Positions 31,427 to 58,069 of a stretch of 64,000 bases of DNA are shown here, piece by piece; the first letter of the stretch is position 1; each line of letters opens with the position of its first letter. The position numbers and the translations under genes were made by a program. Origin of the DNA: an uncultured Acidimicrobiales bacterium (GTDB lineage: Bacteria > Actinomycetota > Acidimicrobiia > Acidimicrobiales > RAAP-2); assembly GCA_963730685.1 (NCBI GenBank), contig CAVSSP010000001.1, positions 1,687,767 to 1,751,766 of the forward strand, in the 5' to 3' direction. The notes beneath the pieces are model-generated. The model saw only the letters and a list, made by a program, of their open reading frames with translations, did no database searches and had not been told where the DNA came from.

Positions 31427-33217
31427 TCAGCCCAGCCGCTGCTCCAGCCGGTCCACCTCGGCGGCGAGCTGGGACGGGAGCTTGTCGCCGAACACCGCGA
31501 AGTGCTCCCGGATGCCCGGCACCTCGGCCCGCCACTCCTCGACGTTCACGGTGAGGAGCTTCTCCATGTCGGCGGGCGAGACGTCGAGCCCATCGGTGTC
31601 GATGGCGCCCGGGGCGGGGACGAACCCGATGGGCGTGTCGAGTGCCTCGCCGGTCCCGCTCACCCGCTCGAACACCCACTCGAGGACCCGGGAATTCTCG
31701 CCGTAGCCGGGCCAGAGCCAACGCCCGTCCGCATCCTTGCGGAACCAGTTGACGTAGAAGATCTTCGGGAGCTTGTCCGGGTCGGCCCCGGCTCCGATCT
31801 GGAGCCAGTGGGCGAAGTAGTCGGCCATGTTGTACCCGCAGAAGGGGAGCATGGCGAAGGGGTCGCGGCGGAGCTTCCCCACCGCACCGGCCGCTGCCGC
31901 CGTCGTCTCCGAGGCCATGATCGATCCCAGGAACACCCCGTGCTCCCAGTCCCTCGACTGGAACACCAGGGGAATGACCGACGCCCGGCGGCCTCCGAAC
32001 AGGATGGCGTCGATCGGAACGCCGGCCGGATCCTCCCACTCCGAGGCGATGGCGGGGTCCTGCGAGGCCGGGACGGTAAAGCGCGCGTTCGGATGGGCGG
32101 CCGGTGTGCCCGACTCGGGCGTCCACTCCTCACCCTTCCACGAGGTGGCATGGGCCGGGGCCTCGTCGGTCATGCCCTCCCACCACACGTCGCCGTCGTC
32201 GGTCAGGGCGGTGTTGGTGAAGATGGCGTTGCCGTCCAGGGTCAGCATGGCGTTGGGGTTGGTGTGGGTGTTGGTGCCGGGCGCCACCCCGAAGAACCCG
32301 GCTTCGGGGTTGATGGCATAGAGCCGGCCGTCGGGACCGAACTTCATCCAGCAGATGTCGTCGCCCACGGTTTCGACCTTCCAGTCGGGAAGGGTGGGGA
32401 TGAGCATGGCCAAGTTCGTCTTGCCGCAGGCGGACGGGAAGGCACCGGTCACGTAGCGGGTCTCGCCGGCGGGGGAGGTGAGCTTGAGGATCAGCATGTG
32501 CTCGGCCAGCCAGTTGTCGTCCCGAGCCATGACCGAGGCGATCCGGAGGGCGAAACACTTCTTGCCCAGCAGGGCGTTGCCGCCGTAGCCCGAGCCGTAG
32601 GACCAGATCTCACGGGATTCGGGGAAGTGGACGATGTACTTGTTCTCCGAGTCGCACGGCCACGGCACGTCGGTCTCGCCTTCGGCCAGGGGTGCACCCA
32701 CCGAATGGAGGCAGGGGACGAACTCACCCTCGGATCCGAGCACCTCCAGCGCGCCACGACCCATGCGGGTCATGATCCGCATGGACACCGCGACGTAGGC
32801 CGAGTCGGTGATCTCCACGCCGATGTGGGCGATCGAGGACCCGAGCGGACCCATCGAGAACGGCACCACGTACATGGTCCGTCCCCGCATGGACCCCTGG
32901 AACAGGTCGGTGAGGACGCCGCGCATCTCCTCGGGGTCCCGCCAATTGTTGGTGGGCCCGGCATCGGACTCGAGGGTCGAACAGATGTAGGTGCGGTCCT
33001 CCACCCGGGCCACGTCGCCCGGATCGGAGTGGGCCCAGTAGCTGTTCGGGCGCTTGGCCTCCGACAGCTTGGCGAACGTACCGTTCTCGACCAGGAGCTG
33101 GCACAGACGGTCGTACTCCTCGGCCGAGCCGTCGCACCATTCGACGGAGTCCGGCTCGGTCAGCGCGGCGATCTCGTCCACCCATGCGATCAGCTTCTTG
33201 TTCGAGGTGGGTGGCAT
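31427..33217 (-). CDS. pckG: Phosphoenolpyruvate carboxykinase (GTP)
   Basis: [35 protein letters not shown]. The ATG is preceded by AAGGAGGA. Confidence 0.95.
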
Positions 33218-33340
33218 GGGCTGGGAGGTCCTCCTTGGGATGTTGCCGGGCCTGACGGTCACCTCGCGCAATTCGCACGTCCTGACCGGTTGTCCGGCAA
33301 TTGTAGCTGGCAGTGGCTCGCCCAATGCTAGGCAAGGGTC

Positions 33341-34507
33341 GTGCGCAGGCCCAATTCCGGTGAGGAACCGACCGGCCCGCCCGGCCCCCCGCCCGGCCCC
33401 CCGCCCGGGTCCCCGCCCGGGCCCCCGCCCACGGGGCCTCCCGGAGGTCTTGACGAGTTCGACGCCATCGAGCGGATGAGCGCCCAATTCCTGGCGTCGG
33501 CCCGGGCCCGGCTGCCTGACGCGGATCTCCCACCCCAGGGTGACGTCTGGATCGGCGACGACGCCGCCGTGGTGACGGCGAGGAATGGCGGGCAGATGTT
33601 GATGACGACCGACCTGGTGGTGGAAGGTGTCCACTTCGTCCTCGGATTGAGCTCGGTCGACGATGTCGGGTACAAGGCGCTGATGGTGGCGGCGTCGGAC
33701 ATCGCTGCCATGGGGGGACGGCCCGACCAGGTCATGGCATCGATCGTGGCCCCTCCGGCCATCGATCTCGATGACCTGGCCGCCGGTCTCGCCGAGGCGT
33801 CGGGGGAGTGCGGGTGCACGATCGTCGGGGGTGACCTGTCGGCGGGGCCAATCGTGGTGGTGTCGGTGGCCGTGTTCGGTGCGCTGGGCCCCGAGCCCAC
33901 CGTCGGCCCGCTGCTGCGGTCCGGCGCCCGGCCCGGTGACCACCTCTTCGTGACCGGGCCACTGGGGGGGTCGGCGGCCGGCCTGCGGATCCTCCGGCAG
34001 AGATACCGGGGAGACGAACTACATGCCAATGGCATGTTATTTGGAAAAACAGTACCGGAGCGCTCCCAACTTCCCCACGACACCCCGACCCACGACGCCG
34101 GGACCAGCGAGACCCGCAACCGTGACGACGCCCTCGCACGCACTCACCTCCGTCCACGGGCCCGGGTGCGTGAAGGCGAGACGGCGAGGCTGGCCGGGGC
34201 CACTGCCGCCATCGACATCTCCGATGGGCTGGCAGCCGACCTGGGCCATGTGGCCGGCGCCTCGGGGGTCGGGATCTCCCTCGACAGCGTGCCCGTGGCG
34301 GACGGGGCGACGATCCCCGAGGCACTCCACGGTGGAGAGGATTACGAGCTGGTGCTCGCCACCCCCGATCCCGATCGCCTGGTCGCCGCCTTCGGACAGG
34401 CCGGGCTTCCCCCGCCCCTGGCGGTGGGACGGTGCACGGAGTCGGCAGGTGAGGTGGTCCTCGACGGGGTGCCGCTGCCGCCGACGGGGTGGACCCACCG
34501 GTTCTGA
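33341..34507 (+). CDS. thiL: Thiamine-monophosphate kinase with Pro-rich N-terminal extension and ~30-aa internal insertion
   Basis: [55 protein letters not shown]. The insertion is at ~34015-34125. Confidence 0.85.
34015..34125 (+). repeat. Copy B of the AT-rich element, inserted in frame in thiL: 7-bp-arm palindrome + GTTATTTGGAAAAAC + degenerate ..CGAC heptamers
   Basis: CATGCCA-A-TGGCATG at 34022-34036. Motif at 34036-34050. It is followed by ccacgac accccgac ccacgac gccgggac. This is a local GC dip in a ~70% GC gene. Confidence 0.6.
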
Positions 34508-34627: not shown

Positions 34628-35337
<710 letters not shown>

Positions 35338-35341
<4 letters not shown>

Positions 35342-37032
35342 CCCTCCGGCTGCGCCTCCTCCTGCTCCTGGTCGGGATCGTGGCTGCCGGCCTGGTCATA
35401 TCCGACGTGGTGACCTACAACGCCCTGCGCTCGTTCCTCACCACCCGGGTGGACCAGCAGCTGGAGTCGGCGGCCTTCCCGGTGGGCCGGGCCCTGCTGT
35501 CGTCCTCGGGCCTCGGCCTGACGGTCCCGGCCGCCCCACCGGCCGGATCGGCCAACCCCACGGCCGGGTCGGCCACCACCACGCCCACCACCACGCCCAC
35601 CACCACGCCCACCACCACGCCCACCACCGCTACGACCCTGCCCAACTCGTCGACGCTGCCGCCCGGATCGCGGCCCGGGCGGAGCCCGTTCCGCGGCTCG
35701 TTCAGGAACGGGGGAGGCCTGTTCGGCTCCCCACCCGGGTCCCAGCGCGGACTGTTGGTCACGCCGGGGACGTACGGGCAGCTGCGGAGTGCCACCGGCA
35801 AGGTGGAGGCCCATCTGTTCTTCAGCTACGGAGGCAAGGCCCCGTCCACCCCGGCCATCCCGGCAAGACTGCCTGGCGCCGGCCTGCCGGGCACGACCGA
35901 CCACTACTTCACGACGTCGAGCACGGGCCCGAACGCGGTCTCGTACCGGGTGCTGGCCAAGCCCCTTTCCCACGGCGGAGGGGTGATCGTGGTGGCGGTC
36001 CCGCTCACCGATCTCGAGAGTACGCTCCGCCAGCTGCTCCTGGTCGAACTGGTCGTGTCGCTGCTGCTCCTGGTCGGGCTGGGCACCCTCTCGTGGGTCA
36101 TGGTGCGGCGAGACCTCCGGCCGTTGCAGGAGATGACCGAGACCGCCGGGGTGATCGCCCAGGGCGACCTGTCCCAGCGGGTCTCCCACGTGAACGAGGC
36201 CACCGAGGTGGGCAAGCTGGGGACCGCGTTCAACACCATGGTTGACGAGATCGAGGTGGCGTTCTCCGAGCGGGCTGCGTCCGAGGAGCGTCTCCGGCGG
36301 TTCCTGGCCGACGCCTCCCACGAACTCCGCACCCCGCTCACCTCCATCCTCGGGTATGCAGAGCTGTTCGACCTCGGGGTCCGTGACCGGCCCGAGGACC
36401 TGGCCGTCTCGATGCGGACCATCAAGGAGGAGGCGGCCCGCATGGGGGTCCTGGTGGACGACCTGCTGTGGCTGGCCCAGCTCGACCACGAACGCCCACT
36501 CCGACGCGAGCGCGTCGACCTCGGGGAGGTGATCCAGAGGTCGGCGGCCGTCATCGGCGTCTCGGCGCCGGACCGGCCTCTCTCTGTGGGGATCGACCAC
36601 CCGGTCGTGGTCGTCGGTGACGGACAACGCCTCCGCCAGGTGGTGGACAACCTGCTGGTCAATGCCGTGACGCACACCCCGACGGGGACCGCCATCGAAG
36701 TCACCATGACCCAGGAGGGCCAGTGGGCGGTCGTCACCGTCCACGACGAGGGGCCGGGGATCGACTCGGACGAGGTCGATCGGATCTTCGAGCCGTTCTA
36801 CCGGTCGGATCCCTCGCGGGCCAGGGTGTCGGGAGGTGCGGGCCTGGGGCTGGCCATCGTGGCCGCCATCGTCGGGTCCCACGGTGGGACGGTGGTGGCG
36901 AGACCCGGAAGGGGGGCCACCTTCGAGGTTCGGCTACCCATCACCACGACCTCCGACGAGGACTCCCAGTCGGTCGAGTCTCCGCCGGGACGGGCCGAGC
37001 CCGTCGAGCCGGCCCGCCGGGTCGGGTCCTAG
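35338..37032 (+). CDS. Sensor histidine kinase (HAMP + HisKA + HATPase_c)
   Basis: ATGA overlap with the response regulator. Two TM segments, H-box [16 protein letters not shown]-box, G-box [10 protein letters not shown]. Periplasmic (TTPT)n repeat at 35575-35628. Confidence 0.95.
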
Positions 37033-43651: not shown

Positions 43652-43831
43652 ATGGCCGTCCCCAAGAAGAAGACCTCCAAGTCGAAGACCCGAAGCCGCC
43701 GGGCATCCAACTGGGTGCTGAAGGCGCCGGCGCGTTCCGTCTGTCCCCAGTGCACCTCCGCCAAGCTGCCCCATGTGGTCTGCCCGAACTGCGGATGGTA
43801 CAAAGGCCGGCAGGCCCTCGAAGTCGACTAA
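43652..43831 (+). CDS. rpmF: 50S ribosomal protein L32 (Cys-containing form)
   Basis: Own translation; at 59 aa it is below the ORF-track cutoff. MAVPKKKTSKSKTRSRRASNWVLKAPARSVCPQCTSAKLPHVVCPNCGWYKGRQALEVD. Confidence 0.9.
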   Translation: MAVPKKKTSKSKTRSRRASNWVLKAPARSVCPQCTSAKLPHVVCPNCGWYKGRQALEVD

Positions 43832-44934
43832 TGGTGCGCAGGGCAGCGCGCCCGACCGGTGCGGCGTTGGCCGCGCTCCCCGTGGCGGTCGACGCCATGG
43901 GCGGGGACCGGGCCCCCGAGGAGATCGTTGCCGGTGCCCGTCGGGTCGCCGACACGACGGACATCAAGGTGGTCCTGGTCGGGCTTCCCGGGGGGATGGG
44001 CGACATCGGCACCCTCGCCACCATCGATGCCAGCGAGATCATCGGTATGGACGACGATCCCGGCCAGGGCGTGCGCAGGAAGAAGGACTCCTCGCTGGTC
44101 AGGGCGGCCGAGGCCGTCCGGGACGGCAGGGCCCTGGCCATGGTGTCGGCCGGCAACACCGGAGCGACCATGGCCTCGGCGCTCCTCCGGATGGGTCGGC
44201 TCCCCGGTGTGATCCGCCCCGCCATCGCCAGCCCCGTCCCGTGCCCCGGCCGCAAATGGCCGACCGTGCTCCTCGATTCGGGGGCCAACGCCGAGTGCTC
44301 GGCCCAGATGCTCGTCCAGTTCGCCCACATGGGGGCGGCGTTCGTCCGCAAGCGTTACGACGTCGAGCGACCGAGGGTCGCCCTGCTGTCGATCGGTGAG
44401 GAGAAGTCCAAGGGAAGCCCCCTGGTGAAGGAGGCCCACGGGCTGCTCGCCGGCTCGGGGATCCCCGGTGCCGACTTCATCGGCAACGTCGAGGGTCGCG
44501 ACTTCTTCGCCGGGGTGGCCGACGTCATCGTCACCGACGGGTTCACCGGCAACGTCGCCCTCAAGACCATGGAGGGGTCGCTCCGGTTCCTGATCGGCGC
44601 TCTGGGCGACGTCCTCGGCCGACCCGAGCTGAGCGAGGCCACCGCCGCCCTCTCCCCCCACCTGCTGGCGCTGGCCGCCGACCTCGACCCCGAGTCCGTC
44701 GGTGGCGCCATGCTCCTCGGCGTGGATGGCGTCTGTGTCATCAGCCACGGCTCGTCGTCGTCGGTGGCCATCGTCAACGCCATCACCGTCGCCCACGACC
44801 TGGCGGTGGCGGGACTGGTGGACGCGGTGGCCGGGTCGGTGGCCGAGGCGGTGGCCGAGGCGGTGGCCGAGTCGGTGGCCGAGCCAGCCGGTGAGCCCAC
44901 CGGCGGGCGGCCGGCCGACACACCCGTCAACTAG
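43831..44934 (+). CDS. plsX: Phosphate acyltransferase PlsX
   Basis: VAVDAMGGDRAPEE, SAGNTGA, DGFTGNVALKT, GSS. TAATG overlap with rpmF. C-terminal (VAEA)n repeat at ~44820-44890. Confidence 0.9.
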   Translation: MVRRAARPTGAALAALPVAVDAMGGDRAPEEIVAGARRVADTTDIKVVLVGLPGGMGDIGTLATIDASEIIGMDDDPGQGVRRKKDSSLVRAAEAVRDGRALAMVSAGNTGATMASALLRMGRLPGVIRPAIASPVPCPGRKWPTVLLDSGANAECSAQMLVQFAHMGAAFVRKRYDVERPRVALLSIGEEKSKGSPLVKEAHGLLAGSGIPGADFIGNVEGRDFFAGVADVIVTDGFTGNVALKTMEGSLRFLIGALGDVLGRPELSEATAALSPHLLALAADLDPESVGGAMLLGVDGVCVISHGSSSSVAIVNAITVAHDLAVAGLVDAVAGSVAEAVAEAVAESVAEPAGEPTGGRPADTPVN

Positions 44935-47599: not shown

Positions 47600-48913
47600 C
47601 TACCGCTGGAGCAGGTCCTTGGCGATGTGGGTGATCTGGATCTCGTCGGTTCCGGCGTAGATCTGGAACACCTTGGCGTCACGGGCCAGCTGCTCCACCC
47701 GGAACTCGGCCATGTACCCGTTTCCGCCGAACAGCTGGACGGCCTCCATGGCCACCTCGGAGGCGGCCTGGGCCGAGTAGAGCTTCATGGCCGAGGCCTC
47801 GGCCAGGGTCAGGGTCTTGCCGGCCTCGGACAGCTCGATGTGCCGGAAGACCAGGTTCTGCACGTTGAGGCGGGCCACCTCCATCTTCGCCAGCTTGAGC
47901 TGGATGAGCTGGCGGTCCCCGATCGGCCGCTCCCACAGCATCCGGTTCTTGGCGTACTCCACCGACAGCTTCAGGCACTCCTCGATGACCCCGAGCGACA
48001 TGGCGGCCAGCCCGGCCCGCTCGGTGACGAAGTTGCCCTTGGCCGAGTCCCGCCCGCTACCGGCCCGCTCGTCCTCGGTCTCACCCAACAGGTGCTCCCG
48101 GCCCACCCGCACATCGGTCAGGAACAGCTCGCCCGTGGGCGACGAGTGCAGCCCCATCTTGCGGAACGGTTTGGACTGCTCCAGTCCGGGTGTTCCCCTG
48201 TCGAGGACGAAGGTCAGCACCTGGCGGTCGCGGATGGGGGTGTCCGACCCGTCGTCCAGCTTGGCGTAGAACACGATGGTGTCGGCGAAGGGCCCGTTGG
48301 TGATGAATGTCTTGGACCCGTTGAGGATGTACTCGTCGCCGTCCCGGCGGGCGGTGGACTTCATCCCGCCGAGCGCGTCGGAACCGGAGTCGGGCTCGGT
48401 GATGGCCCAGGCGCCGACCTTGTCACCGGTCAGGAGGTCGAGTCCCCATCGCTCCATCTGGGACGGCGTGCCCTGCTTCATGATGGTCCCCCCGGCCAAC
48501 CCGGCGCTCACCCCCATGGCGGTGACGATGCCCGGGCAGTAGTGGCACAGCTCGATGATGGGGATCAAGGTCATGGCGGCGGCACCGCCGTCGCCCCGGC
48601 GTCCGGCGGCCGCCTCCCCGGTGTCCCCGGTGTCCCCGGTGTCCCCGGTGTCCCCGGCTGCCGTTGTGGCCCCGGCACCCGCTCCGGCGCCGGGGCCGGC
48701 GCCGCCGAGCTCGGCCGACCTGCGGTCCAGCTGCTTCTTGAACCGGTCGCGGGCGAGCTGGTCCATGCCGAAGGTGGCGTAGAGCTTCGAGATGATGCCG
48801 TAGGGCGGCAGATCGCCGTGCTCCAGGGCCTCGATGTTGGGGACGACCTCGGCGTCGATGAAGCGCCGGATGGCGTCCCGGATCATCAGCTGCTCTTCTG
48901 ACCACTCGAACAC
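47600..48913 (-). CDS. Acyl-CoA dehydrogenase with Gly/Ala/Thr-Asp repeat insertion
   Basis: ITEPDSGSDA, NGSKTFITNG, QLFGGNGY, YAGTDEIQ. GDTGDTGDTGDTG is encoded by a 9-bp x4 repeat at ~48619-48655. Confidence 0.9.
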   Translation of the reverse strand: MFEWSEEQLMIRDAIRRFIDAEVVPNIEALEHGDLPPYGIISKLYATFGMDQLARDRFKKQLDRRSAELGGAGPGAGAGAGATTAAGDTGDTGDTGDTGEAAAGRRGDGGAAAMTLIPIIELCHYCPGIVTAMGVSAGLAGGTIMKQGTPSQMERWGLDLLTGDKVGAWAITEPDSGSDALGGMKSTARRDGDEYILNGSKTFITNGPFADTIVFYAKLDDGSDTPIRDRQVLTFVLDRGTPGLEQSKPFRKMGLHSSPTGELFLTDVRVGREHLLGETEDERAGSGRDSAKGNFVTERAGLAAMSLGVIEECLKLSVEYAKNRMLWERPIGDRQLIQLKLAKMEVARLNVQNLVFRHIELSEAGKTLTLAEASAMKLYSAQAASEVAMEAVQLFGGNGYMAEFRVEQLARDAKVFQIYAGTDEIQITHIAKDLLQR

Positions 48914-48990: not shown

Positions 48991-49383
48991 GTGCGAGTCA
49001 AGCGCGAACCCGACCGCCCCGCCTACGAGCGATGGGGGGGCGAGCCCTTCTTCACCGCCCTGGTGGGGCGGTTCTACGAGGGTGTGTCGACGGATCCACT
49101 CCTGCGGCCCATGTACCCGGCCGACCTGTCCGAGTCGAAGGCCCATCTGGCCATGTTCCTGATGCAGTACTGGGGCGGACCGCCCACCTACAGCGAGCAG
49201 CGGGGCCATCCCCGGCTCCGGATGCGCCACGCCCCCTTCGCCATCGGGCAGGCGCAGTCCGAGGCGTGGCTGCGCCACATGACCGACGCCGTGGCCGCCT
49301 CGGGGCTGGGCCCCGACGACCGACAGGAGCTCCTCGACTATCTGTCGATGGCGGCCCGCAGCCTGGTCAACGCCGACACCTGA
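48991..49383 (+). CDS. glbO: Group II truncated haemoglobin
   Basis: FYEGVSTDPLLRPMYP...FLMQYWGGPPTYSEQRGHPRLRMRHAPF, a typical trHbO sequence. Confidence 0.9.
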   Translation: MRVKREPDRPAYERWGGEPFFTALVGRFYEGVSTDPLLRPMYPADLSESKAHLAMFLMQYWGGPPTYSEQRGHPRLRMRHAPFAIGQAQSEAWLRHMTDAVAASGLGPDDRQELLDYLSMAARSLVNADT

Positions 49384-49418: not shown

Positions 49419-50306
49419 TCAGCGCCCGGCCGGCACCGACCGGGACACGTCGACCGACACGTCGAGTGTGTGGGTGTTCCCGCCGCCGAACACGATGCCC
49501 TTGAGCGGCGAGACGTCGGAGTAGTCGCGCCCCCAGGCCGTCGTGACGTAGGTCGACCCCACCACCTGGTCGTTGGTGGGGTCGACGTCGAGCCAGCCCC
49601 ACTCGGGGATGAACACCGACGGCCAGGCATGGGAGGCGTCGGCCCCGATCAGGCGCTCCTCGCCGGGCGGTGGCGCCGTCTCCAGGTAGCCGCTCACATA
49701 GCGGGCGGCCAGACCCATGGAGCGCAGGCATCCGATGGCGAGGTGGGCGAAGTCCTGGCAGACGCCGCGCCGGAACCGGATCACCTCCTCGAGGGGGGTG
49801 GTCACCGTGGTGAACCCGGGATCGTAGAGGTAGTCGACGAAGATCCGCTCGGTGAGCTCGGAGACCACGTCGTGGATGGGACGACCCGGCGTGAACGACG
49901 GCTCGGCGTAGGCGCGCACCGCGGCCGACAGGGGGATGAGCGGCGACTCGAAGCAGAACTGGCGTGCGGCCAGGGTGTCGGGACCGAGGTCGCGGGCCAG
50001 GGTGTCCCGCGCCCGCTCCCAGGCGGAGCCGACCGCCGGCAGCGGTTCGCGCCCGGACACCGACACCGAGCTGGTCGACGTCACCGTCAGCTCCGAAAAG
50101 GGACCGTCCACGGCGAACGTGGCCACCGGGTTCCCGAAGAAGTCGCTCCGTTCCGACCAGCTGGTCGGCGTCGGCTCGACCACGATCTCGCTGCTCAAGC
50201 AGTGCTGGCGGTCCGATTCCCGTGGCCGCAGGTGGGCCTCGTTGCGGGCGCGTGCCACCGGTGCCGTGTACCGGTAGGCGGTCCGGTGGACGATGCGGTA
50301 GATCAT
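49419..50306 (-). CDS. Transglutaminase-fold protein (Bact_transglu_N + TGase core Cys-His-Asp)
   Basis: MIYRIVHRTAYRY, RGVCQDFAHL, ADASHAW, DVDPTN. ATGA overlap with the upstream gene. Confidence 0.9.
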   Translation of the reverse strand: MIYRIVHRTAYRYTAPVARARNEAHLRPRESDRQHCLSSEIVVEPTPTSWSERSDFFGNPVATFAVDGPFSELTVTSTSSVSVSGREPLPAVGSAWERARDTLARDLGPDTLAARQFCFESPLIPLSAAVRAYAEPSFTPGRPIHDVVSELTERIFVDYLYDPGFTTVTTPLEEVIRFRRGVCQDFAHLAIGCLRSMGLAARYVSGYLETAPPPGEERLIGADASHAWPSVFIPEWGWLDVDPTNDQVVGSTYVTTAWGRDYSDVSPLKGIVFGGGNTHTLDVSVDVSRSVPAGR

Positions 50307-53035
50307 CGGGCCGGGCCGTCCGGACCGCCCGGACGGGCTGCTCCCAGCGAGTGCTGGAGCCCGGTGAGCATCGACAGGCGCTCGTGGGAGAAGTACGTGC
50401 GGCGCAGGCTGTCCAGCAGCTCCCCCAACAGCTCGTCCACCCGTCCGAGGACGGTGTCCAGCTCCGGTCGCTGTCGCGAGTCGGGGTCGACCGAGGCCAG
50501 GCGGGTGGCGTCGGTGAGGCGGAGCATGGTGGTGATCTCCAACACCAACTGCTCACCGTGCCCGAGCCGCTGGGCCGGGGACCGCTTGGGCAGGTCGGCG
50601 AGCTGGTCCACCAGCCGGTCCAACTGGTACATCACACTCCGGGGGTTGGCGGCGTCGTAGACCAGCAGGTCCACGGCGCCGGCCACGCGCATGGTGGGTC
50701 CGGAACGGCGCCGGAAGATGATCAGGCTCTCGGATGTCTTGAGCAGCGACTCCAACAGCAGGTCCTCGACCACGCCGGCCCGCTGGTGGACCAGGACGGC
50801 CCGGAGCAGCCGTACCAGGGACTGGGCCCGTTCGAGTCGCCTGCCGGCGTCGAGGAACAGCCATGCGGCGTCGCGTTCCATGTTCTCGGCCGACAGCCCG
50901 GCCAGGGCCAGAAGCGCCTGGAGCAGCCGCTGCAGGCTGGACTGGACGCCCACGAGCTGGGTGGGGGGGCGGTTCCGCAGTCGGGCGAGCTCCTCTTCGA
51001 CGTCGCCCACCAACTGCCAGGTGTCGCTCGAGAGCTGCTCCCGCACCGAGTAGGCGGCGTCGACGAGGAGCGCCAACGACGACACCAGGCTGCCGTCCAC
51101 CCCGGCGTCGAGGAGCAGGGACAGCGCCCGTCGGTCGGTGGGCACATCGGAGTCGGACCCGTTCGACGGCTGGCCGGGCACGGTCCGGCTCTCTTCCCGC
51201 GGGGCCACGATCCCGGAGCCCTCGCCCTCGGGCTCGGACACCGCATCGAACCCCGAGGCGGTACCGAGGGCGGCCAGCAGGACCTGCAGCGACTCGGCCC
51301 CGCCGTCCACGCCCACCCCGAGCGGCTGGTCGAGTCGGGCCAGAACGGTACGGATGAGTCGGATGACCAGCTCGGCATGCTCGGCGGTCCGGCCGAGGAC
51401 GAACAGCTGGGCGGCCACCCGCCCGGGGAGCGGGGTGGCCACGTCGGGCACGACCGGGGGCCGGATCGTGGTCCGGGCCGACCGGAGCCAGGTGCTCTGC
51501 TGGAGGGCGGGCTCGGTCGAGGCCACCCAGGTGTCCTTGCTGGTGCCGTCGTTGTGGTTGGAGATGATCAGGGAGGTCGGTGCCGCGCCCACCCTGGTCA
51601 GGCCACCCGGGAGGACACGCAGGCCGTGGGGGCCGTCGTCGGCGCCGCTCGGGCCGGCCACCACGAAGGTGCGCAGCACGGTCGGCCGGGGCTCCAGCGA
51701 GCCCGAGTCCGTCACGGTCGGTGTGGTCGAGGGCTCGATGAGCTCCTGGCCCACCCACTCCCAGGGTCGGGCCCGGATCTGGTCCCGGAGCCCGGCGAGC
51801 TCGTCGGCGGTGAGGGACGACCCCACGATGGGGCGCCGGGCCGGGGACGGACGGATGGCCTGGACGACGAGGCCGTCGAGATGGGCCAGCACGTGGCTCT
51901 GGGCGGCCGGCTCGCCGCACCACCAGGTCTCGGGGCCGCGCAGGGCCAGGTCCTCACCCAGGAGCACCGGTGCCAACGGCTCCAGCAGGGCGGTGATGGC
52001 GGGATGCTCGATCACCCCGGAGCCGACCGGGTTGATCACGGTCACCCGCCCCCGGCGGGCCACCTCGAGCAGCCCGGGGACACCGAGCAGGGAGTCGGCC
52101 CGGAGCTCCACCGGGTCGCACCAGGTGTCGTCGACCCGTCGGATGACCACGTCGACGGGATCGAAGCCGGCCAGCGACCGCAGCCACACCCGGTTGTTGT
52201 TGACCACCAGGTCGCGGCCCTCCACCAGCGCGTAGCCGAGATACGAGGCCAGGTAGGCGTGCTCGAAGTACGTCTCGCTCAGGGGCCCCGGCGTCAGGAT
52301 GACCACCCGCGGCTCGTCGACCCCCTCGGGGGCCGTGGCCGCCACGCCGGCCCGGATGGACCGGAAGAACCCGGCCAGCCGCTCGACGCCCGACTCCCGG
52401 TGCAGATTGGGGAGGACCCTCGACAAGATGGTCCGGTTCACCAGCGCGTAGCCCAGGCCCGAGGGCGCCTCGGCCCGGTCGCCCACCGCCCGGAAGTGGC
52501 CGTCCCGGTCGCGCACCACGTCGACGGCGGTGAGGAAGAGCCGGTGGGCGCCCGGCGCCGGCATGTCGGCGCAGGCCCGCAGGAAGGCCGGGTTGCCGAG
52601 GACCAGTTGGGCCGGGATCCGACCGTCGCCCACCAGGCGCCGCTCGCCGTAGATGTCGGACAGCACCAGGTCCAACAGGGCCACGCGCTGGGACACCGCC
52701 GACTCGAGACCGGTCCACTCGGCGCCGTCCACCACCAGTGGACAAGGATCGAGGGCCCAGGCCTGCCGGCGGCTGACGTGGTCCTGGTTCACGTTGTAGG
52801 TGGCGCCCTCGTTGCGCAGCAGGCGGGCCAGCTCGGTCCGGCGGGCCAGCAGGCCACTCGGGCCCAGGCCGGCCAACTCCGCCGCCACCTGTTTCCAGCG
52901 GGTCCTCACCAGCCCGTCGGGGCCCAGGTACTCGTCGGTGCGACCCGGGACGGGGCTGTACGCGGGCAACCCGGTGCCGCCGGGCCCGACGGGGGGGTTG
53001 CCGCCGAAGGGCTCGGCGGCCGTCGCCGTGGTCAT
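50303..53035 (-). CDS. Fusion of circularly permuted ATP-grasp (type 2) and alpha-E domains
   Basis: 910-aa ORF. The N-terminal half parallels 54104-55771 (SETYFEHAYLASYLGYALVEGRDLVV, DSLLGVPGL, GTSKDTWV). The C-terminal half parallels the alpha-E protein (ERDAAWLFLDAGRRLERA). Confidence 0.85.
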   Translation of the reverse strand: MTTATAAEPFGGNPPVGPGGTGLPAYSPVPGRTDEYLGPDGLVRTRWKQVAAELAGLGPSGLLARRTELARLLRNEGATYNVNQDHVSRRQAWALDPCPLVVDGAEWTGLESAVSQRVALLDLVLSDIYGERRLVGDGRIPAQLVLGNPAFLRACADMPAPGAHRLFLTAVDVVRDRDGHFRAVGDRAEAPSGLGYALVNRTILSRVLPNLHRESGVERLAGFFRSIRAGVAATAPEGVDEPRVVILTPGPLSETYFEHAYLASYLGYALVEGRDLVVNNNRVWLRSLAGFDPVDVVIRRVDDTWCDPVELRADSLLGVPGLLEVARRGRVTVINPVGSGVIEHPAITALLEPLAPVLLGEDLALRGPETWWCGEPAAQSHVLAHLDGLVVQAIRPSPARRPIVGSSLTADELAGLRDQIRARPWEWVGQELIEPSTTPTVTDSGSLEPRPTVLRTFVVAGPSGADDGPHGLRVLPGGLTRVGAAPTSLIISNHNDGTSKDTWVASTEPALQQSTWLRSARTTIRPPVVPDVATPLPGRVAAQLFVLGRTAEHAELVIRLIRTVLARLDQPLGVGVDGGAESLQVLLAALGTASGFDAVSEPEGEGSGIVAPREESRTVPGQPSNGSDSDVPTDRRALSLLLDAGVDGSLVSSLALLVDAAYSVREQLSSDTWQLVGDVEEELARLRNRPPTQLVGVQSSLQRLLQALLALAGLSAENMERDAAWLFLDAGRRLERAQSLVRLLRAVLVHQRAGVVEDLLLESLLKTSESLIIFRRRSGPTMRVAGAVDLLVYDAANPRSVMYQLDRLVDQLADLPKRSPAQRLGHGEQLVLEITTMLRLTDATRLASVDPDSRQRPELDTVLGRVDELLGELLDSLRRTYFSHERLSMLTGLQHSLGAARPGGPDGPAR

Positions 53036-53053
53036 GACGTGGTCACGACGGAG

Positions 53054-54037
53054 TCATGACGCCACCGACGCCGGCTGCCAGCCCACGAAGTTCGGCCGGA
53101 AGTAGGTCTCGTCGATCCGGTCGTGGACGGCCGCCACCGCCACCTGGACGTCGTCGAGGAACTCGCTGAGCCCGCCCGTGGTCAGCCGGGTGACCGCCGC
53201 GGTCGCCACCATCATGGAGGCATTGTTGCAGGCATCGATGGCCTCTTCCGCACGGGCCAGTCCCTTCAGCTGGCCTCGGGTCTCGGTGAGGCAGGCGCTG
53301 ACGGCCCGTGGGAAGCGGTCGTCCTGGAGCAGGAAACGGAGCATGGAGCCGCCCTGGGGCCGGGCCGGCATGGCCCGGCGAAACGGCTGGTAGGCGGCCA
53401 GCGACCGCAACACGGCCATCCAGTGGACGGCGTCGTAGGGATCGTCACCCCGCTTGGGCTGGAGGTTCTCCGACCGCACCTCCAGGACACGGGTGGTCAG
53501 ATCGGCGCGCTCGAGGTTCTGTCCGATGAGGAGGAAGGACATCGCCTCGTCGCGGCTCATGGTCCCGAGCAGGATCCCGTTGATGCGCTGGCAGCCGGCG
53601 ATCACCCGGCGCAGCCACTGGACCCGGTTCTGGCGGTCCTCGGTCTCGGCGAGGTTGTCGCAGCACACCAACCACAGGCTGTTGCACGCCTCCCAGGCCT
53701 CGCGGGGGACCACCGGGCGGGCGGTACGAAGGTTCTCACGGGCCGACGCGATGGACCCGAGGATGGAGGACGGATTTCCGTCGCCGTGCAGGAGGAACTC
53801 GATCACGTCCTCCTCGGACGGTCCGTCCCCTCCGGACTCCATGGCGGCCGAGTAGCGCTCGGCGAACTCACTGTCGACGCCGGCGATGGCCAGCAGCGGC
53901 TCCCAGCCCACGTCCTGGCCCACCGGCATGTCGACGTGGGTGTCGGTGTGCACCTGCACGATGCGTGCGGTGCATTCGGCGCGCTCGAGATAGCGACCTG
54001 CCCAGTAGACGGCCTCGGCCATTCGTGCCAGCAGCAT
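53054..54037 (-). CDS. Alpha-E domain protein (DUF403)
   Basis: MLLARMAEAVYWAGRYLERAECTARIV. The ATG lies 6 nt after AAGGAG. The longer ORF start (54103) was rejected. Confidence 0.85.
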   Translation of the reverse strand: MLLARMAEAVYWAGRYLERAECTARIVQVHTDTHVDMPVGQDVGWEPLLAIAGVDSEFAERYSAAMESGGDGPSEEDVIEFLLHGDGNPSSILGSIASARENLRTARPVVPREAWEACNSLWLVCCDNLAETEDRQNRVQWLRRVIAGCQRINGILLGTMSRDEAMSFLLIGQNLERADLTTRVLEVRSENLQPKRGDDPYDAVHWMAVLRSLAAYQPFRRAMPARPQGGSMLRFLLQDDRFPRAVSACLTETRGQLKGLARAEEAIDACNNASMMVATAAVTRLTTGGLSEFLDDVQVAVAAVHDRIDETYFRPNFVGWQPASVAS

Positions 54038-54103
54038 GGTGGGCTCCTTTGCCTCGCTCGATGCGGATTCGTCGTCTTCGTCGGCGCCTTCCACCGCGGT
54101 CAC

Positions 54104-55771
54104 CTACGAGCCGTCCCCGGCACCGGTGTCGGGGACGGCGTCGGCTCCGGAAGCCCCGGGGAAGACAGGAGGGGCCGGCGACCGCGAAGCGCCGGGGGAG
54201 CCGGGGGAGCCGGGGGAGCCGGGGGAGCCGGGGGAGCCGGGGGACGGGGACGCCGGGTCGCTCGCGGGCGCCGGGGACAGCTGGCTGTCGACCACCCAGG
54301 TGTCCTTGCTGCCACCTCCCTGGGAGGAGTTGACCACCAGTGAGCCCGAGCGCCGGGCCACCCGGGTGAGGCCGCCGCGGGTCACATAGGCGCCCTCGGG
54401 ACCGAGGAGGGTGAACGGGCGCAGGTCGACATGGCGCGGCGCGATCTCACCGTCACACAGCGTCGGGGCGGTGGAAAGCGGGATGATCGGCTGGGCCACC
54501 CACCGGTCGGGCTCGCTCTCGATCTGCTTGCTGACGGCGGCCATCTCTTCCTCGGTGGCCTGGGTCCCGACCATGACCCCGTAGCCGCCGGACTCGTTGG
54601 CCGGCTTGACCACCAGGCGCTCGAGATTGCTCAGGACGTAGTGCCGGGAGTCGTCGTCGCTGCACCGGAGCGTGGGGACGGTGGCGAGGATGGGCTCCTC
54701 GCCGAGGAAGAACCGGATGATGTCCGGCACGTAGGAGTAGACCTTCTTGTCGTCGGCGATGCCGGCCCCCGGCGCGTTGACCAGGGCCACCCGACCGGCC
54801 CGCCACGACCGGATCAGGCCCGGGACACCCAGCATGGAGTCGGGCCGGAACGCCTCGGGGTCGAGGTACAGGTCGTCGATGCGCCGGTAGATCACGTCGA
54901 CCCGTTGGAGGCCGTCGATGGTCCGGGCGTAGACGCAGTCGTCGTCCAGGACCACCAGGTCACTGCCTTCCACCAGCTCGACGCCCAGCTGCTGGGCCAA
55001 GAAGGCGTGCTCGAAGTAGGCCGAGTTGTAGATGCCCGGGGTCAGCACCACGATGGTCGGGTCGCCGGTGGCGGGGGACACCGAGGCCAGCATGTTGGCC
55101 AGTCTCCCGATGTAGGGGTCGACGGGCTCGATGCTGTAGTGCCGGAACATCTCGGCGAAGACGTGCTTGGCCACCATCCGGTTCTCCAGCAGGTACGAGA
55201 CCCCCGACGGGACCCGGAGGTTGTCCTCGAGGACGTAGACGGTGCCGTCCGCGTCGCGGATCAGGTCGCTTCCGCAGATGTGGGCCCAGATGCCTCCGGG
55301 CGGCTTGACCCCGACGCACTCCCGCCGGAAGTTGGGCGATCCGGCCACCAGCTCGGAGGGGACGATGCCGGCGCTCACCGCCCGTTGGTCCTGGTAGACG
55401 TCGTCGATGAACAAGTTGAGGGCGTTCAGCCGCTGGACCAGCCCGGACTCGATCAGCTGCCATTCGTCGGACGGCATGACCCGGGGGATGATGTCGAAGG
55501 GCCAGGGCCTGTCGACCCCGGTCGAGCCCTCGTAGACGGTGAAGGTGACCCCGATGGCCCGCATCTCCCGGTCGGCGGCCTCCTGCCGGTCGGACAGGGC
55601 CTCGGGCCCGAGCTCGGTGAAGTGCCGCCACAGGGTGCGGGCCGACGGCCGCGGCACCCCGTGGGGGCCCACCATCTCGTCGAAGAAGTCGCCGGGGTCG
55701 TACGAGGGCCATGGCTCCACACCCGGATCCGGGGGACTCCCGGACGCGTCGGGTGAGTCGTCACGTTCCAC
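54104..55771 (-). CDS. Circularly permuted ATP-grasp type 2 protein (DUF404/DUF407)
   Basis: NSAYFEHAFLAQQLGVELVEGSDLVV, DSMLGVPGL, VVKPANESGGYG, GGSKDTWVV. C-terminal (PGS)5 repeat. The start is uncertain (GTG 55771 preferred). The 55852 ATG extension has GC3 of only ~36%. Confidence 0.85.
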   Translation of the reverse strand: MERDDSPDASGSPPDPGVEPWPSYDPGDFFDEMVGPHGVPRPSARTLWRHFTELGPEALSDRQEAADREMRAIGVTFTVYEGSTGVDRPWPFDIIPRVMPSDEWQLIESGLVQRLNALNLFIDDVYQDQRAVSAGIVPSELVAGSPNFRRECVGVKPPGGIWAHICGSDLIRDADGTVYVLEDNLRVPSGVSYLLENRMVAKHVFAEMFRHYSIEPVDPYIGRLANMLASVSPATGDPTIVVLTPGIYNSAYFEHAFLAQQLGVELVEGSDLVVLDDDCVYARTIDGLQRVDVIYRRIDDLYLDPEAFRPDSMLGVPGLIRSWRAGRVALVNAPGAGIADDKKVYSYVPDIIRFFLGEEPILATVPTLRCSDDDSRHYVLSNLERLVVKPANESGGYGVMVGTQATEEEMAAVSKQIESEPDRWVAQPIIPLSTAPTLCDGEIAPRHVDLRPFTLLGPEGAYVTRGGLTRVARRSGSLVVNSSQGGGSKDTWVVDSQLSPAPASDPASPSPGSPGSPGSPGSPGSPGASRSPAPPVFPGASGADAVPDTGAGDGS

Positions 55772-55949
55772 AAGTGAAGTGATAGGACGGCGATGCGTCT
55801 GATGGGTTGCCACAGTGTTTCCACTCCGTGAATGTCCAGTTGGCGTTATCATCTGCCAGCGGCGCCGGGTACTGCCCGAGCCGGTTGAGCGTGGTCTGCA
55901 CGGCCTGAAGCCTCTGGATCGGTCCCCTTGCCGTTCCGATGCGTTTCAT
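55761..55949 (-). CDS. Candidate 62-aa small ORF directly upstream of, and overlapping, the ATP-grasp operon
   Basis: Own reading: MKRIGTARGPIQRLQAVQTTLNRLGQYPAPLADDNANWTFTEWKHCGNPSDASPSYHFTCGT. GC3 is ~72% against GC1/GC2 of ~54% in a ~57% GC region. AGGTG lies before the ATG. The stop overlaps GTG 55771 by 11 nt. Confidence 0.3.
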   Translation of the reverse strand: MKRIGTARGPIQRLQAVQTTLNRLGQYPAPLADDNANWTFTEWKHCGNPSDASPSYHFTCGT

Positions 55950-56124
55950 GGCACCTGGTGCAGTACGGCGCGATCCGGCGAGGTGCGGTGCGCGCTCAGG
56001 CCTTCGGGCCCGGCGGCGCTGCCAGTCGGCCACGCGTCCGTCCGACCCCGTCACCCCAACCGTACCGGACGACGTGTGCCCCCAGCCACCACCCATAACC
56101 GTCCACCGACCCACAGGAGATGCC

Positions 56125-56421
56125 GTGCCCGCTGAGACCCACGTGGAGAAGGGTCCACTCGACCGAGGGCAGGTGCTCTCGCTCATCCGAGACCTGCTGG
56201 CCGACATCTTGGAGATCGAGCCGGCGTCGATCTCGGAGTCGGCGTCCTTCGCCGAGGACCTCGATGCCGACTCGTTGGCCCTGATCGAGCTGGTCGAGGG
56301 GCTGGAGGAGGAGCTGGGCGAGCGTTCCGTGGGATTCCGGATCGACGACGAGGACCTCGAGGAGCTGCGTACGGTGCGCGATGCGGTGGACTACGTCTAC
56401 GCCAAGCTCGGAGGGGCCTGA
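56125..56421 (+). CDS. acpP: Acyl carrier protein
   Basis: FAEDLDADSLALIELVEGLEEE (DSL phosphopantetheine site). The GTG lies after AGGAGA. Confidence 0.85.
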   Translation: MPAETHVEKGPLDRGQVLSLIRDLLADILEIEPASISESASFAEDLDADSLALIELVEGLEEELGERSVGFRIDDEDLEELRTVRDAVDYVYAKLGGA

Positions 56422-56430
56422 GGCGATCTG

Positions 56431-57234
56431 ATGACGTCCCCGAGTGGCCCGGAGGTGTCCGGGGGGGACCATGACCCCGTGGCGCCGGACCGGGTGGAGC
56501 CGGGCCCCGTGGCGCCGGACCGGGTGGCGCCGGACCGGGTGGAGCCGGGCCTCGGGGAGCGGATCGGCTACCGATTCGACGACCCGGCCCTGTTGGATCT
56601 GGCCATGGCCCACCGCTCGTGGTGCGCCGAGCAGGACGGCCGGACCTCGAACGAGCGTCTGGAGTTCCTGGGCGACGCCGTCTTGGGGCTGGTGGTGGCC
56701 GAGTACAGCTACCGGACCCACCCGGACCTCTCGGACGGGCAGATGTCCAAGGTCCGGGCGTCCGTCGTCAACACGAAGGTGCTGGCCGAGGTGGGCCTGG
56801 GGCTGGGGATTCCGGCCCACCTCCGGCTGGGGAGGGGTGAGGATCTGTCCGGGGGGCGGGCCAAGGAGTCGATCCTCGCCGACGCCACCGAGGCGGTCAT
56901 CGGCGCCGTCTACCTCGATGGCGGCCTCGGTGAGGCCGAGCGGCTGGTCCTCTCCCTGCTCAAGGACCGGATCGCCGTGGCCGTCGGCGAACCCGGCGAG
57001 TCCGACCACAAGAGCCGCCTGCAGGAGGAGACGGTCCGGCTGGGGCGTGGCGTGCCCCGGTACGAGGTGGAGGGGTTCGGCCCCGATCATGCCCGCAGGT
57101 ACCTGGCCACGGTGTACGTTGCTGGCCAGCGCCTCGGAACGGGGGAGGGGCGCTCCAAGAAGGACGCCGAGCAGGTCGCCGCCAGGGTGGCCTGCGGATC
57201 GTTGGACGTCGAGAGAGGCGGGGGGGATGCCTGA
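56431..57234 (+). CDS. rnc: Ribonuclease III
   Basis: NERLEFLGDAVLGL, plus a dsRBD with C-terminal KKDAEQVAA. N-terminal VAPDRVEPG repeats at 56470-56555. Confidence 0.9.
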   Translation: MTSPSGPEVSGGDHDPVAPDRVEPGPVAPDRVAPDRVEPGLGERIGYRFDDPALLDLAMAHRSWCAEQDGRTSNERLEFLGDAVLGLVVAEYSYRTHPDLSDGQMSKVRASVVNTKVLAEVGLGLGIPAHLRLGRGEDLSGGRAKESILADATEAVIGAVYLDGGLGEAERLVLSLLKDRIAVAVGEPGESDHKSRLQEETVRLGRGVPRYEVEGFGPDHARRYLATVYVAGQRLGTGEGRSKKDAEQVAARVACGSLDVERGGGDA

Positions 57235-58069
57235 GCTTCCCGAAGTCGAGACCATTCGGCGGGACCTCCAAGGTGAGGTGGTCGGTCGCAAGATCAAGTC
57301 GGTGGAGGTCCGAAACGGACGCACCGTCCGCCGCCACCCGAGCGCCAAGCAGTTCCGGTCCCGGTTGGAGGGCCACACCATCAAGGCCGTGGACAGGAAG
57401 GGCAAGTACCTCCTGTTGGGCCTGGACGACGGCCAGACGCTGGTCGTGCACCTGGGCATGAGCGGCCAGCTCCAGCGGGCCAAGGGCCCCAAGGAGCCCA
57501 AGGCCCCCCACACCCATGCGGTGATCACCTTCACCCAGGGTGGCCAGCTTCGCTTCGTCGATCCCCGTACCTTCGGGGAGCTGTTCGTCTCGGCGGCGCC
57601 GGCCGAAGGGGAGCGTCCGCTGCCCGAGCTCGCCCACCTGGGGTTCGACCCACTCGAGGACGTGATGAGCTGGGAGAAGTTCTGGGTGTTGCTGGCCTCG
57701 CACAAGAGCGGGCTGAAGGCCCTGCTGATGGACCAGGAGTTCGTGGCCGGCATCGGGAACATGTACGCCGACGAGATCCTGTTCGCCGCCGGGCTGCGGT
57801 TCGACCGGCTCTCGAGCTCGCTGTCGTCCCAGGAGGTGCGCCGGCTCTACCGGTCCATGGTCGAGACGCTGGCCGAGGCGGTCAAGCGGCGCGGGTCGTC
57901 GTTGGCCGACGAGCAGTACCGCGACCTGTTCGGCGAGATCGGCGACTACCAGGACCAGCACCAGGCCTACGACCGTGAGGGCCAGGCCTGCCGTCGCTGC
58001 CGTGCCACCATCGTCCGGGTGAAGTCGGGCGGCCGGTCGACCTACTTCTGCGACCACTGTCAGGTGTGA
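57227..58069 (+). CDS. mutM: Formamidopyrimidine-DNA glycosylase
   Basis: MPELPEVETIRR, H2TH, and C-terminal zinc finger CRRC...CDHC. Confidence 0.95.
   Translation: MPELPEVETIRRDLQGEVVGRKIKSVEVRNGRTVRRHPSAKQFRSRLEGHTIKAVDRKGKYLLLGLDDGQTLVVHLGMSGQLQRAKGPKEPKAPHTHAVITFTQGGQLRFVDPRTFGELFVSAAPAEGERPLPELAHLGFDPLEDVMSWEKFWVLLASHKSGLKALLMDQEFVAGIGNMYADEILFAAGLRFDRLSSSLSSQEVRRLYRSMVETLAEAVKRRGSSLADEQYRDLFGEIGDYQDQHQAYDREGQACRRCRATIVRVKSGGRSTYFCDHCQV

Follow-up and report, generated by a model that had tools for sequence, protein, structure and literature searches.

A four-gene ATP-grasp, Alpha-E and transglutaminase-fold operon of Acidimicrobiales appears to be under nitrogen-limitation control through a GlnR-type box

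In a 64,000-nt stretch of ~71% GC from an uncultured Acidimicrobiales bacterium (assembly GCA_963730685.1, contig CAVSSP010000001.1; the whole stretch is referred to below as the window), four tightly packed minus-strand genes form an operon. They encode a stand-alone circularly permuted (CP) ATP-grasp ligase (AG), a stand-alone Alpha-E protein (AE), a fusion of an ATP-grasp-like domain with Alpha-E (FUS) and a transglutaminase-fold protein (TG). The element directly upstream of AG fits a GlnR-type operator, through which the operon appears to be controlled by nitrogen limitation. We lean toward a reading in which a nitrogen-limitation-activated promoter would drive expression of one active ligase, one pseudo-ligase adaptor and one thiol hydrolase or transamidase.

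A system of CP ATP-grasp, Alpha-E and transglutaminase-like peptidase, occurring with or without the Ntn-hydrolase Anbu and a CP glutamine-synthetase-like DUF2126 protein, is described as a prediction of Iyer, Abhiman, Burroughs and Aravind (2009) in PMC5666114, PMC6376114 and PMC3495828. These later papers attribute the system just as a first-pass annotation of this DNA had done. PMC3495828 gives the predicted roles as a ligase that adds a peptide tag and a transglutaminase-like peptidase that removes it. A search of the full-text literature up to 2026 found no paper defining a substrate or product, in agreement with the uncharacterised status that the annotation had assigned.

Each of the five open reading frames (ORFs) that the first-pass annotation had placed in the block was found at its coordinates; four proved to be genes, and the fifth, of 62 codons, coincides with a regulator site instead. 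The four genes have a third-position GC content (GC3) of 0.90-0.94, as do other genes of the window, and Pfam assigned all of the expected families decisively. AG (54104-55771, 555 aa) matches CP_ATPgrasp_2 at 1.5e-160 (ORF 54104-55852/55771), carries the full catalytic motif set and ends in a low-complexity (GSP)n tail. AE (53054-54037, 327 aa) matches Alpha-E at 1.2e-75 (ORF 53054-54103). FUS (50303-53035, 910 aa) matches CP_ATPgrasp_2 at 1.8e-136 and Alpha-E at 5.3e-60, with an ATP-grasp-like domain of degenerate catalytic motifs at residues ~99-482 and an Alpha-E domain at 536-882. TG (49419-50306, 295 aa) matches Bact_transglu_N at 2.2e-26 and Transglut_core at 1.7e-17. The genes AG-AE-FUS-TG are read as one operon because only 66 nt separate AG from AE and 18 nt separate AE from FUS, while the FUS stop and TG start share a 4-nt ATGA overlap (50303-50306).

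The start sites and the overlap described previously also stood. AG begins at GTG 55771, since its frame is closed upstream of that codon by in-frame stops in three relatives (loci L001, L002 and L063), and AE begins at Met 54037, where M1 is invariant in 42 homologues and the deposited gene call is likewise 327 aa. No NCBIfam or PADLOC model matched any of the four proteins. The anti-phage defence models of PADLOC gave zero matches at the locus, and a defence system was rejected on that ground.

Inspection of the DNA upstream of AG reveals four direct repeats phased at 11 bp on the minus strand (55795-55832), with sites TTCAC (55832-55828), GAAAC (55821-55817), GCAAC (55810-55806) and GACGC (55799-55795). 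The pattern occurs once in the 64-kb window and in 0 of 100 shuffles. Across Acidimicrobiales loci the consensus is TTCAc-n6-GAAAC-n6-GCAAc-n6-GACcC, in which the 5-nt sites are near-invariant and the spacers more variable. Of the fetched Acidimicrobiales loci, 13 (12 of them distinct) keep the element, as do three further metagenome loci, making 16 AG loci, and in two of them (L081 and L083) additional genes lie between the acyl carrier protein gene and AG, yet the operator remains beside AG. Just upstream (55833-55858) stands a second pair of sites, ATAAC-n6-TGGAC in the window and GTTAC-n6-GTGAC in L002 and L082, which is partly conserved and ~5 bp out of phase with the main element; it may be an extra box of the a3-b3 type or the site of another factor. 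A reading of the region as a riboswitch or leader RNA was rejected, as RNAalifold gave -1.66 kcal/mol without a consensus structure or covarying pairs and Rfam returned only chance-level matches.

The published actinobacterial GlnR box consists of four sites, a1-b1-a2-b2, with the consensus gTnAc-n6-GaAAc-n6-gTnAc-n6-GaAAc; in Mycobacterium smegmatis a 17-mer, Gn2AC-n6-GnAACA, has the AC-n9-AC core as its essential part, and four GlnR protomers are placed around the -35 region (PMC3662644, PMC3087709, PMC10235972). Our element shares the four 5-nt sites, the 6-nt spacers, the AC-n9-AC core and the GAAACA b-site, and it too abuts the -35 region. It differs in its a2 and b2 sites, where GCAAC and GACCC take the place of GTnAC and GAAAC. 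A candidate -10 hexamer, TATCAC (55779-55784, minus strand), follows the last operator site by 10 nt and precedes the GTG by 7 nt, and the AG mRNA is therefore probably leaderless or near-leaderless. A hexamer with A at position 2 stands at this fixed distance in all 12 distinct loci (variants TATCAC, TAACAC, GACACT, TAACAA and TATACC), with the GTG following 6-7 nt later. A generic sigma-70 scan did not call the proposed promoter, and a terminator scan found nothing convincing after TG.

To place the motif in a wider setting, a metagenome collection was scanned for TTCAC-n6-GAAACA-n5-GnAAC, which gave at least 120 matches, 62 in DNA of GC >=0.58 and 58 below that value. Among the 120 matches listed, the gene downstream in the GC-rich group was as follows: a family of ~170-aa proteins in 21 cases (none at low GC; motif 23-49 nt upstream), an ammonium transporter in 5 (1 at low GC), P-II in 3 (none), glnA in 2, one of them distinct (1), and AG itself in 3 (none), with 29 having another gene or too short a flank. 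The low-GC group forms a contrast, with 56 matches in that last class and nitrogen, regulator or AG genes downstream in just 2 of 58. Because the same motif precedes glnA, P-II, amt and the regulator gene, it probably represents a nitrogen-regulon operator in GC-rich Actinomycetota. The motif-bearing glnA contig belongs to Ca. Anoxymicrobiaceae, and an Acidimicrobiales origin is established for part of the nitrogen-gene contigs only.

The ~170-aa family contains a single Pfam domain, the OmpR/PhoB winged helix (Trans_reg_C), preceded by a reduced N-terminus of ~85 aa that is merely receiver-like ('MDVVLVRWP...RLLLV...EDWIRxPA'). It has 4312 relatives at E <=1e-10, and all NCBI-named members are called 'Acidimicrobiales bacterium'. 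The genes are preceded at 23-49 nt by TTCAC-n6-GAAAC-n6-GAAAC. Examples are L093:5553-6080 (minus strand), L205:6001-6513 and L206:6001-6504, with others in L092, L100, L102, L103, L122, L132, L133, L141, L145, L156, L157, L160, L164, L166, L168, L169, L176, L179, L182 and L200. Two of these (L205 and L206) were picked by protein similarity and not by motif, and they too carry the repeats just upstream of the regulator gene; both regulators are orphans, with no kinase gene nearby. Taken together, this receiver-less OmpR-type protein is probably an autoregulated nitrogen regulator of Acidimicrobiales, smaller at ~170 aa than GlnR (~260 aa).

Direct repeats phased at 11 bp are generally bound by OmpR/PhoB proteins, and it was considered whether the operator might serve a regulator unrelated to nitrogen, so that the operon would answer a different signal. 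The window itself supplies a candidate pair at 34628-37032, in which an OmpR-family response regulator with M. tuberculosis PhoP as its closest counterpart (E 4e-70) neighbours a HAMP/HisKA histidine kinase; a GTP-dependent phosphoenolpyruvate carboxykinase gene (31427-33943, minus strand) lies beside them. In addition, the first repeat (ATTCACG) is similar to PHO-box and PhoP half-sites. The alternating TnAC/GAAAC pattern with its invariant GAAACA fits the GlnR consensus instead, glnA, P-II and amt genes have this motif ahead of them too, and the PhoP-like genes lie 15-20 kb off with housekeeping genes between. We regard control by such a non-nitrogen regulator as very unlikely.

Published expression data for homologous operons are consistent with a nitrogen response. 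In Burkholderia cenocepacia, expression of I35_5080-83, which comprises DUF404/407, DUF403, a transglutaminase-like and a large transglutaminase-like protein, falls 6-9-fold in an ntrC mutant (PMC5491218). In Pseudomonas putida grown on nitrate versus ammonium, PP_2685 (Anbu) rises by log2 4.4 and PP_2688 (CP ATP-grasp) by log2 4.0 (PMC8050072), and nitrogen limitation induces Anbu (PMC5666114, PMC6376114). Two microarray studies of M. smegmatis under nitrogen starvation place msmeg_4567, msmeg_4569 and msmeg_4570 3.1-3.7-fold higher in the wild type than in a glnR deletion mutant. These three genes are annotated 'conserved hypothetical' there, and neither GlnR study discusses orthology to AG, AE or TG. 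The msmeg_4567-4570 genes adjoin rpsT (MSMEG_4571), and judged by this position, not by sequence, the three are probably the mycobacterial AG, AE and TG orthologues. Rv2409c-2411c of M. tuberculosis likewise adjoin rpsT (Rv2412).

To learn more about the two ATP-grasp modules, an alignment was made of 43 sequences of AG type and 79 of FUS type, taken from 80 fetched loci; a species-level genome set holds at least 595 confirmed FUS-related stretches. The N-terminal domain of FUS is 35% identical to AG over 476 aa, and the two are old paralogues. ATP-grasp enzymes are recognized by their Mg2+ ligands (D/E-x-N) and by an ATP-binding lysine with a glycine-rich loop. In AG, the ligand set D169 ... 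L-E182-D-N184-x-x-P-S-G, the lysine of V-V-K389-P and the loop S394-G-G-Y-G398 are each invariant in 43 of 43 sequences. Local hhalign comparison of re-permuted AG with E. coli DdlB aligns these motifs with D257/E270/N272 and with K144 and the GSSVG loop, and the window's own Ddl has the same motifs by eye, 'FIVKPRFGGSSIG' and 'RIDYLSDGTDFVVNEINTIPGS'.

FUS presents a different picture. In place of E-x-N the family has x-D-R, with R in 97% of the 79 sequences and the E position not conserved (V-G185-D-R187 in the window). The lysine position holds K in 78% of the family, Q392 in the window and T or L in L001, L002 and L063, and the glycine-rich loop is not conserved, reading PSPARR in the window. 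Sequence identity is also lower for FUS than for AG, both within the family (69-73% versus 80-87% in the same genomes) and across phyla (39-49% versus 51-61%). By these measures FUS is evolving faster than AG while still under selection. The motif alignment marks AG as the only member keeping a complete ATP-grasp catalytic site. FUS is most likely not a canonical ATP-dependent ligase and is probably a pseudo-enzyme family-wide, its inactivity being something we infer from the lost motifs.

The first-pass annotation had read the two ligase/Alpha-E pairs as a sign of two successive ligations with both ATP-grasp domains active. Some observations speak for that idea: two paralogous pairs share one operon, the modules lie no more than 10 kb apart in at least 47 of the 80 loci, and FUS keeps many family-invariant residues such as YFEH, RR, GGLTR and SKDTW. 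It is weakened because FUS has lost the ATP-grasp catalytic motifs, with x-D-R for E-x-N, no conserved loop and, in this clade, Q, T or L for the lysine, while AG keeps all of them in 43 of 43 sequences. Should a second ligase exist elsewhere, the DUF2126 domain could fill that role in 58 of the 80 loci instead. A two-step ligation by AG and FUS is, in our judgment, unlikely.

Structural comparisons give some context for the remaining domains. AG is a full-length homologue of PDB 3N6X (E 2.5e-154) and the FUS N-terminal domain is homologous as well (5.1e-77); 3N6X is a structural-genomics entry deposited as 'putative glutathionylspermidine synthase', and unlike the AG-AE pair it was solved without an Alpha-E partner, its name being an untested annotation. 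AE contains two 'G-x-x-LERA-[ED]' motifs whose residues are invariant in 42 homologues and which are also present in the Alpha-E domain of FUS; that domain shares ~25% identity with AE across 127 aa. The two copies in AE lie 158 residues apart (53476-53515 and 53950-53989) and are still 75% identical as DNA, and the sequence suggests that the Alpha-E domain arose through internal duplication. An AlphaFold2 model of AE is all-helical, with 15 helices, a mean predicted local distance difference test score (pLDDT) of 82 and a predicted template modelling score (pTM) of 0.84, and no solved structure resembling it was found in the PDB (best Foldseek E 0.47, best phmmer E 0.37). The Cys/His/Asp motifs reported earlier for TG were intact, with C183, H226 and D242 invariant in 76 orthologues, and TG matches PDB 3ISR at 7.8e-09. 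It is of the FUS-linked type, to which it is 41-56% identical across phyla, versus only 24-30% for the type found inside the large DUF2126 protein.

These features can be assembled into a working mechanism for the favoured reading. Under nitrogen limitation, a GlnR-type winged-helix regulator, in this order probably the ~170-aa receiver-less OmpR-family protein, would bind the four sites around the -35 region and activate a leaderless transcript. AG with its helical partner AE would act as the sole ATP-dependent carboxylate-amine ligase, passing through an acyl-phosphate on the way to an amide or isopeptide bond. FUS, as a paralogous ligase/Alpha-E module with no catalytic role, would bind the substrate or the product or else provide a scaffold, and TG, as a thiol hydrolase or transamidase, would take the ligated group off or pass it on. 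The target would most likely be a peptide or protein, reversibly tagged with an amino acid or peptide for nitrogen recycling or scavenging in starvation.

Membership of a nitrogen regulon would also suit a small-molecule route, in which AG joins a carboxylate, for instance the gamma-carboxyl of glutamate, to an amine (a polyamine, an amino acid or an ammonia donor) and TG acts as a nitrogen-releasing amidase, much as in the gamma-glutamylation routes of amine use. The closest solved structure bears the name of a glutathionylspermidine synthase, the partner in most phyla is DUF2126 ('putative amidoligase' in Pfam), and the authors of the Anbu work raised ammonia release by the transglutaminase as a possibility (PMC6376114). 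Set against these points, the 3N6X name is an annotation only and DUF2126 is absent here; proteins with Bact_transglu_N and Transglut_core usually act on proteins or peptides, and an Alpha-E-sized partner together with a 910-aa pseudo-ligase looks more like macromolecular recognition. We consider the small-molecule route a real though lesser possibility.

Several points weigh against the favoured reading. The data fit protein or peptide and small-molecule substrates alike. No gene of the ~170-aa regulator was found in the window, where the sole weak match (20954-21259) is an alpha/beta hydrolase, and the PhoP-like two-component system 15-20 kb away could in principle recognize direct repeats. 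Motif loss in FUS is no proof of inactivity, given that R187 and many shared residues are conserved, and altered chemistry in FUS is possible. Confident matches for the AG motifs came only from the local alignment to E. coli DdlB, for which the sequence did not come from a database record. In M. smegmatis, msmeg_4567-4570 appear in the GlnR expression table only and not among the listed direct targets from chromatin immunoprecipitation.

We take Rv2411c and Rv2567 to be the homologues in M. tuberculosis and Rv2569c to be its FUS-linked transglutaminase-like protein. Rv2411c and Rv2567 served as negative controls in an unrelated assay and made no gamma-aminobutyric acid-trehalose (bioRxiv 10.64898/2026.04.15.718621). 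Rv2569c is reported as a secreted protease with host proteins among its targets, degrading casein and E-cadherin, with a serine-protease inhibitor profile (PMC11081392); that reported role is unrelated to the operon context and silent on the native one. For the Y. bercovieri operon, the ATP-grasp protein releases phosphate from ATP, and co-expression and pull-downs of the operon proteins gave no stable complexes (PMC6376114).

The 62-codon ORF (55761-55949, minus strand), which overlaps the operator and promoter, was rejected as a gene. It sits in the divergent intergenic region between AG and the acyl carrier protein gene (56125-56421, plus strand, PP-binding), and matched no family in Pfam, NCBIfam or PADLOC. 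Its GC3 drops to ~0.5 in the 3' half, its first ~35 codons show conservation in no related locus, and its frame is interrupted by stop codons in L002 and L004. The part that is conserved has an 11-bp periodicity, that of a DNA element, and not a 3-nt one. A small ORF directly upstream of an ATP-grasp gene could nonetheless have been a precursor peptide or tag, as in ribosomally synthesized and post-translationally modified peptides (RiPPs) such as graspetides, and the interruption of the plsX ... acpP order by the block could have marked it as a recently acquired island. As a gene, precursor peptide or tag the ORF was rejected on account of the stops, the absent protein conservation and the operator overlap, and no conserved precursor-peptide gene was found beside the ligase. 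A 588-codon ORF at 55996-57762 (minus strand; GC3 0.81, no family match) shadows the genes acpP, rnc and fpg on the plus strand and exemplifies the long spurious ORFs of this high-GC genome.

As regards the island, the window runs from yceD through plsX (43750-44934), a patatin, a major facilitator superfamily (MFS) sugar transporter, an acyl-CoA dehydrogenase (47600-48913) and a truncated globin (48991-49383) to TG-FUS-AE-AG, followed by acpP-rnc-fpg-smc-ftsY. The closest relatives are uncultured Acidimicrobiaceae/Acidimicrobiales genomes of the species-level set, and a protein 100% identical to FUS is present in NCBI/ENA. Twelve Acidimicrobiales loci, with fusion proteins sharing 62-73% identity with that of the window, keep this gene order; all that varies there is the patatin gene, the MFS gene and a small number of genes lying from TG to the globin. 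It is true that the block stands between plsX and acpP-rnc-fpg-smc-ftsY, as an earlier description of it 'inside an insertion' implied; the arrangement it shares with 12 loci makes it ancient. GC is flat across the block, and neither tRNA genes, flanking repeats nor an integrase were found there; a recent insertion or genomic island was rejected on these grounds and on the shared synteny. The block is an ancient, lineage-wide feature and not a recent or mobile one. Together with the lack of a PADLOC match, these observations leave a precursor peptide or acquired island hardly credible. In the window and the 12 related loci alike, the acyl-CoA dehydrogenase and the truncated (bacterial-like) globin are the operon's immediate downstream neighbours, oriented convergently or divergently.

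Terminal tandem repeats accompany several genes of the window. In-frame repeats of 9, 12 or 15 nt at 54187-54259, 48606-48668, 44816-44887 and 56473-56560 give low-complexity tails to AG ((GSP)n), the acyl-CoA dehydrogenase, PlsX and RNase III, respectively, in what looks like a genome-wide habit. At L001:6900-7230, ~300 nt of tandem repeats lie between the operator/start codon and the conserved AG N-terminus; they encode units of the G-x-x-G-x-P-x-G type, and AG there would gain a long repetitive N-terminal extension.

The system is widespread, with matches in at least 595 species-level genomes, and its prediction dates back more than 15 years. If FUS is a pseudo-enzyme family-wide, as is probable, the way in which Rv2567-type proteins should be assayed would change, and the minimal Acidimicrobiales version without Anbu or DUF2126 is the smallest gene set worth reconstituting. 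A GlnR-type box in Actinomycetota versus the unrelated NtrC/sigma-54 control of Proteobacteria would be a convergence that ties function to nitrogen economy. A large family of small orphan OmpR-type regulators also probably controls nitrogen genes in this abundant, mostly uncultured order. A bolder combination, which we put forward only as speculation, joins the receiver-less ~170-aa regulator, autoregulating through GlnR-like boxes, to a starvation-induced operon for reversible tagging without Anbu or DUF2126. In it, this so far undescribed regulator would run the nitrogen-starvation regulon of the order with the operon among its core targets, and the tagging machine would consist of one active CP ATP-grasp ligase, a dedicated pseudo-ligase/Alpha-E adaptor and a transglutaminase-fold enzyme that takes the tag off proteins or peptides. 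Were it true, the operon would be a minimal form of a bacterial ubiquitin- or Pup-like modification system tied to nitrogen recycling.

Comparison across the 80 fetched loci, a neighbourhood analysis of the kind the first-pass annotation had called for, shows how the window departs from the usual arrangement. The co-occurrence of split and fused copies is a widespread rule and not a peculiarity of the window, because at least 47 of 80 loci from different phyla have the AG-AE pair no more than 10 kb from FUS. A ~1120-aa protein of Bact_transglu_N, Transglut_core and DUF2126 comes before FUS in 58 of these 80 loci, giving the layout AG-AE-[TGase+DUF2126]-FUS-TG; DUF2126 is reportedly seen as glutamine-synthetase-like by Iyer and co-workers. 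That large protein, encoded at L007:6555-9926 and in 57 further loci, shows unusual conservation: its DUF2126 part keeps 53-70% identity over a range of phyla reaching from Bacteroidota to Planctomycetota. The short layout AG-AE-FUS-TG is found in the window, in all Acidimicrobiales loci and in L029 and L046. A tblastn search of the 64-kb window detected no DUF2126, and none appears in the 12 gene lists of the related loci; no Anbu-like gene occurred among the window genes scanned, which are part of the total, or in those 12 gene lists.

Viewed beside known systems, the operon shares with that of Iyer 2009 the three core families, the AG-AE order and the Cys-His-Asp triad of TG. It differs in lacking DUF2126 and, among the scanned genes and gene lists, Anbu, and in joining the split pair directly to FUS-TG. 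With the Pseudomonas PP_2685-2688, Y. bercovieri Anbu and B. cenocepacia I35_5080-83 operons it has homologous ATP-grasp and Alpha-E proteins in common, in a setting where those operons respond to nitrogen limitation. In those operons NtrC/sigma-54 is in control and the last gene encodes Anbu or a large transglutaminase protein, whereas ours carries a GlnR-type operator of direct repeats, probably starts without a leader, lacks Anbu and includes a fused paralogue. Rv2411c-Rv2410c-Rv2409c and Rv2566-Rv2567-Rv2569c of M. tuberculosis, which we take to be of the same families, and M. smegmatis msmeg_4567-4570 are its probable mycobacterial counterparts. Unlike in the window, the split and fused modules of mycobacteria are separate loci, the fused one standing beside a large Rv2566-type protein.

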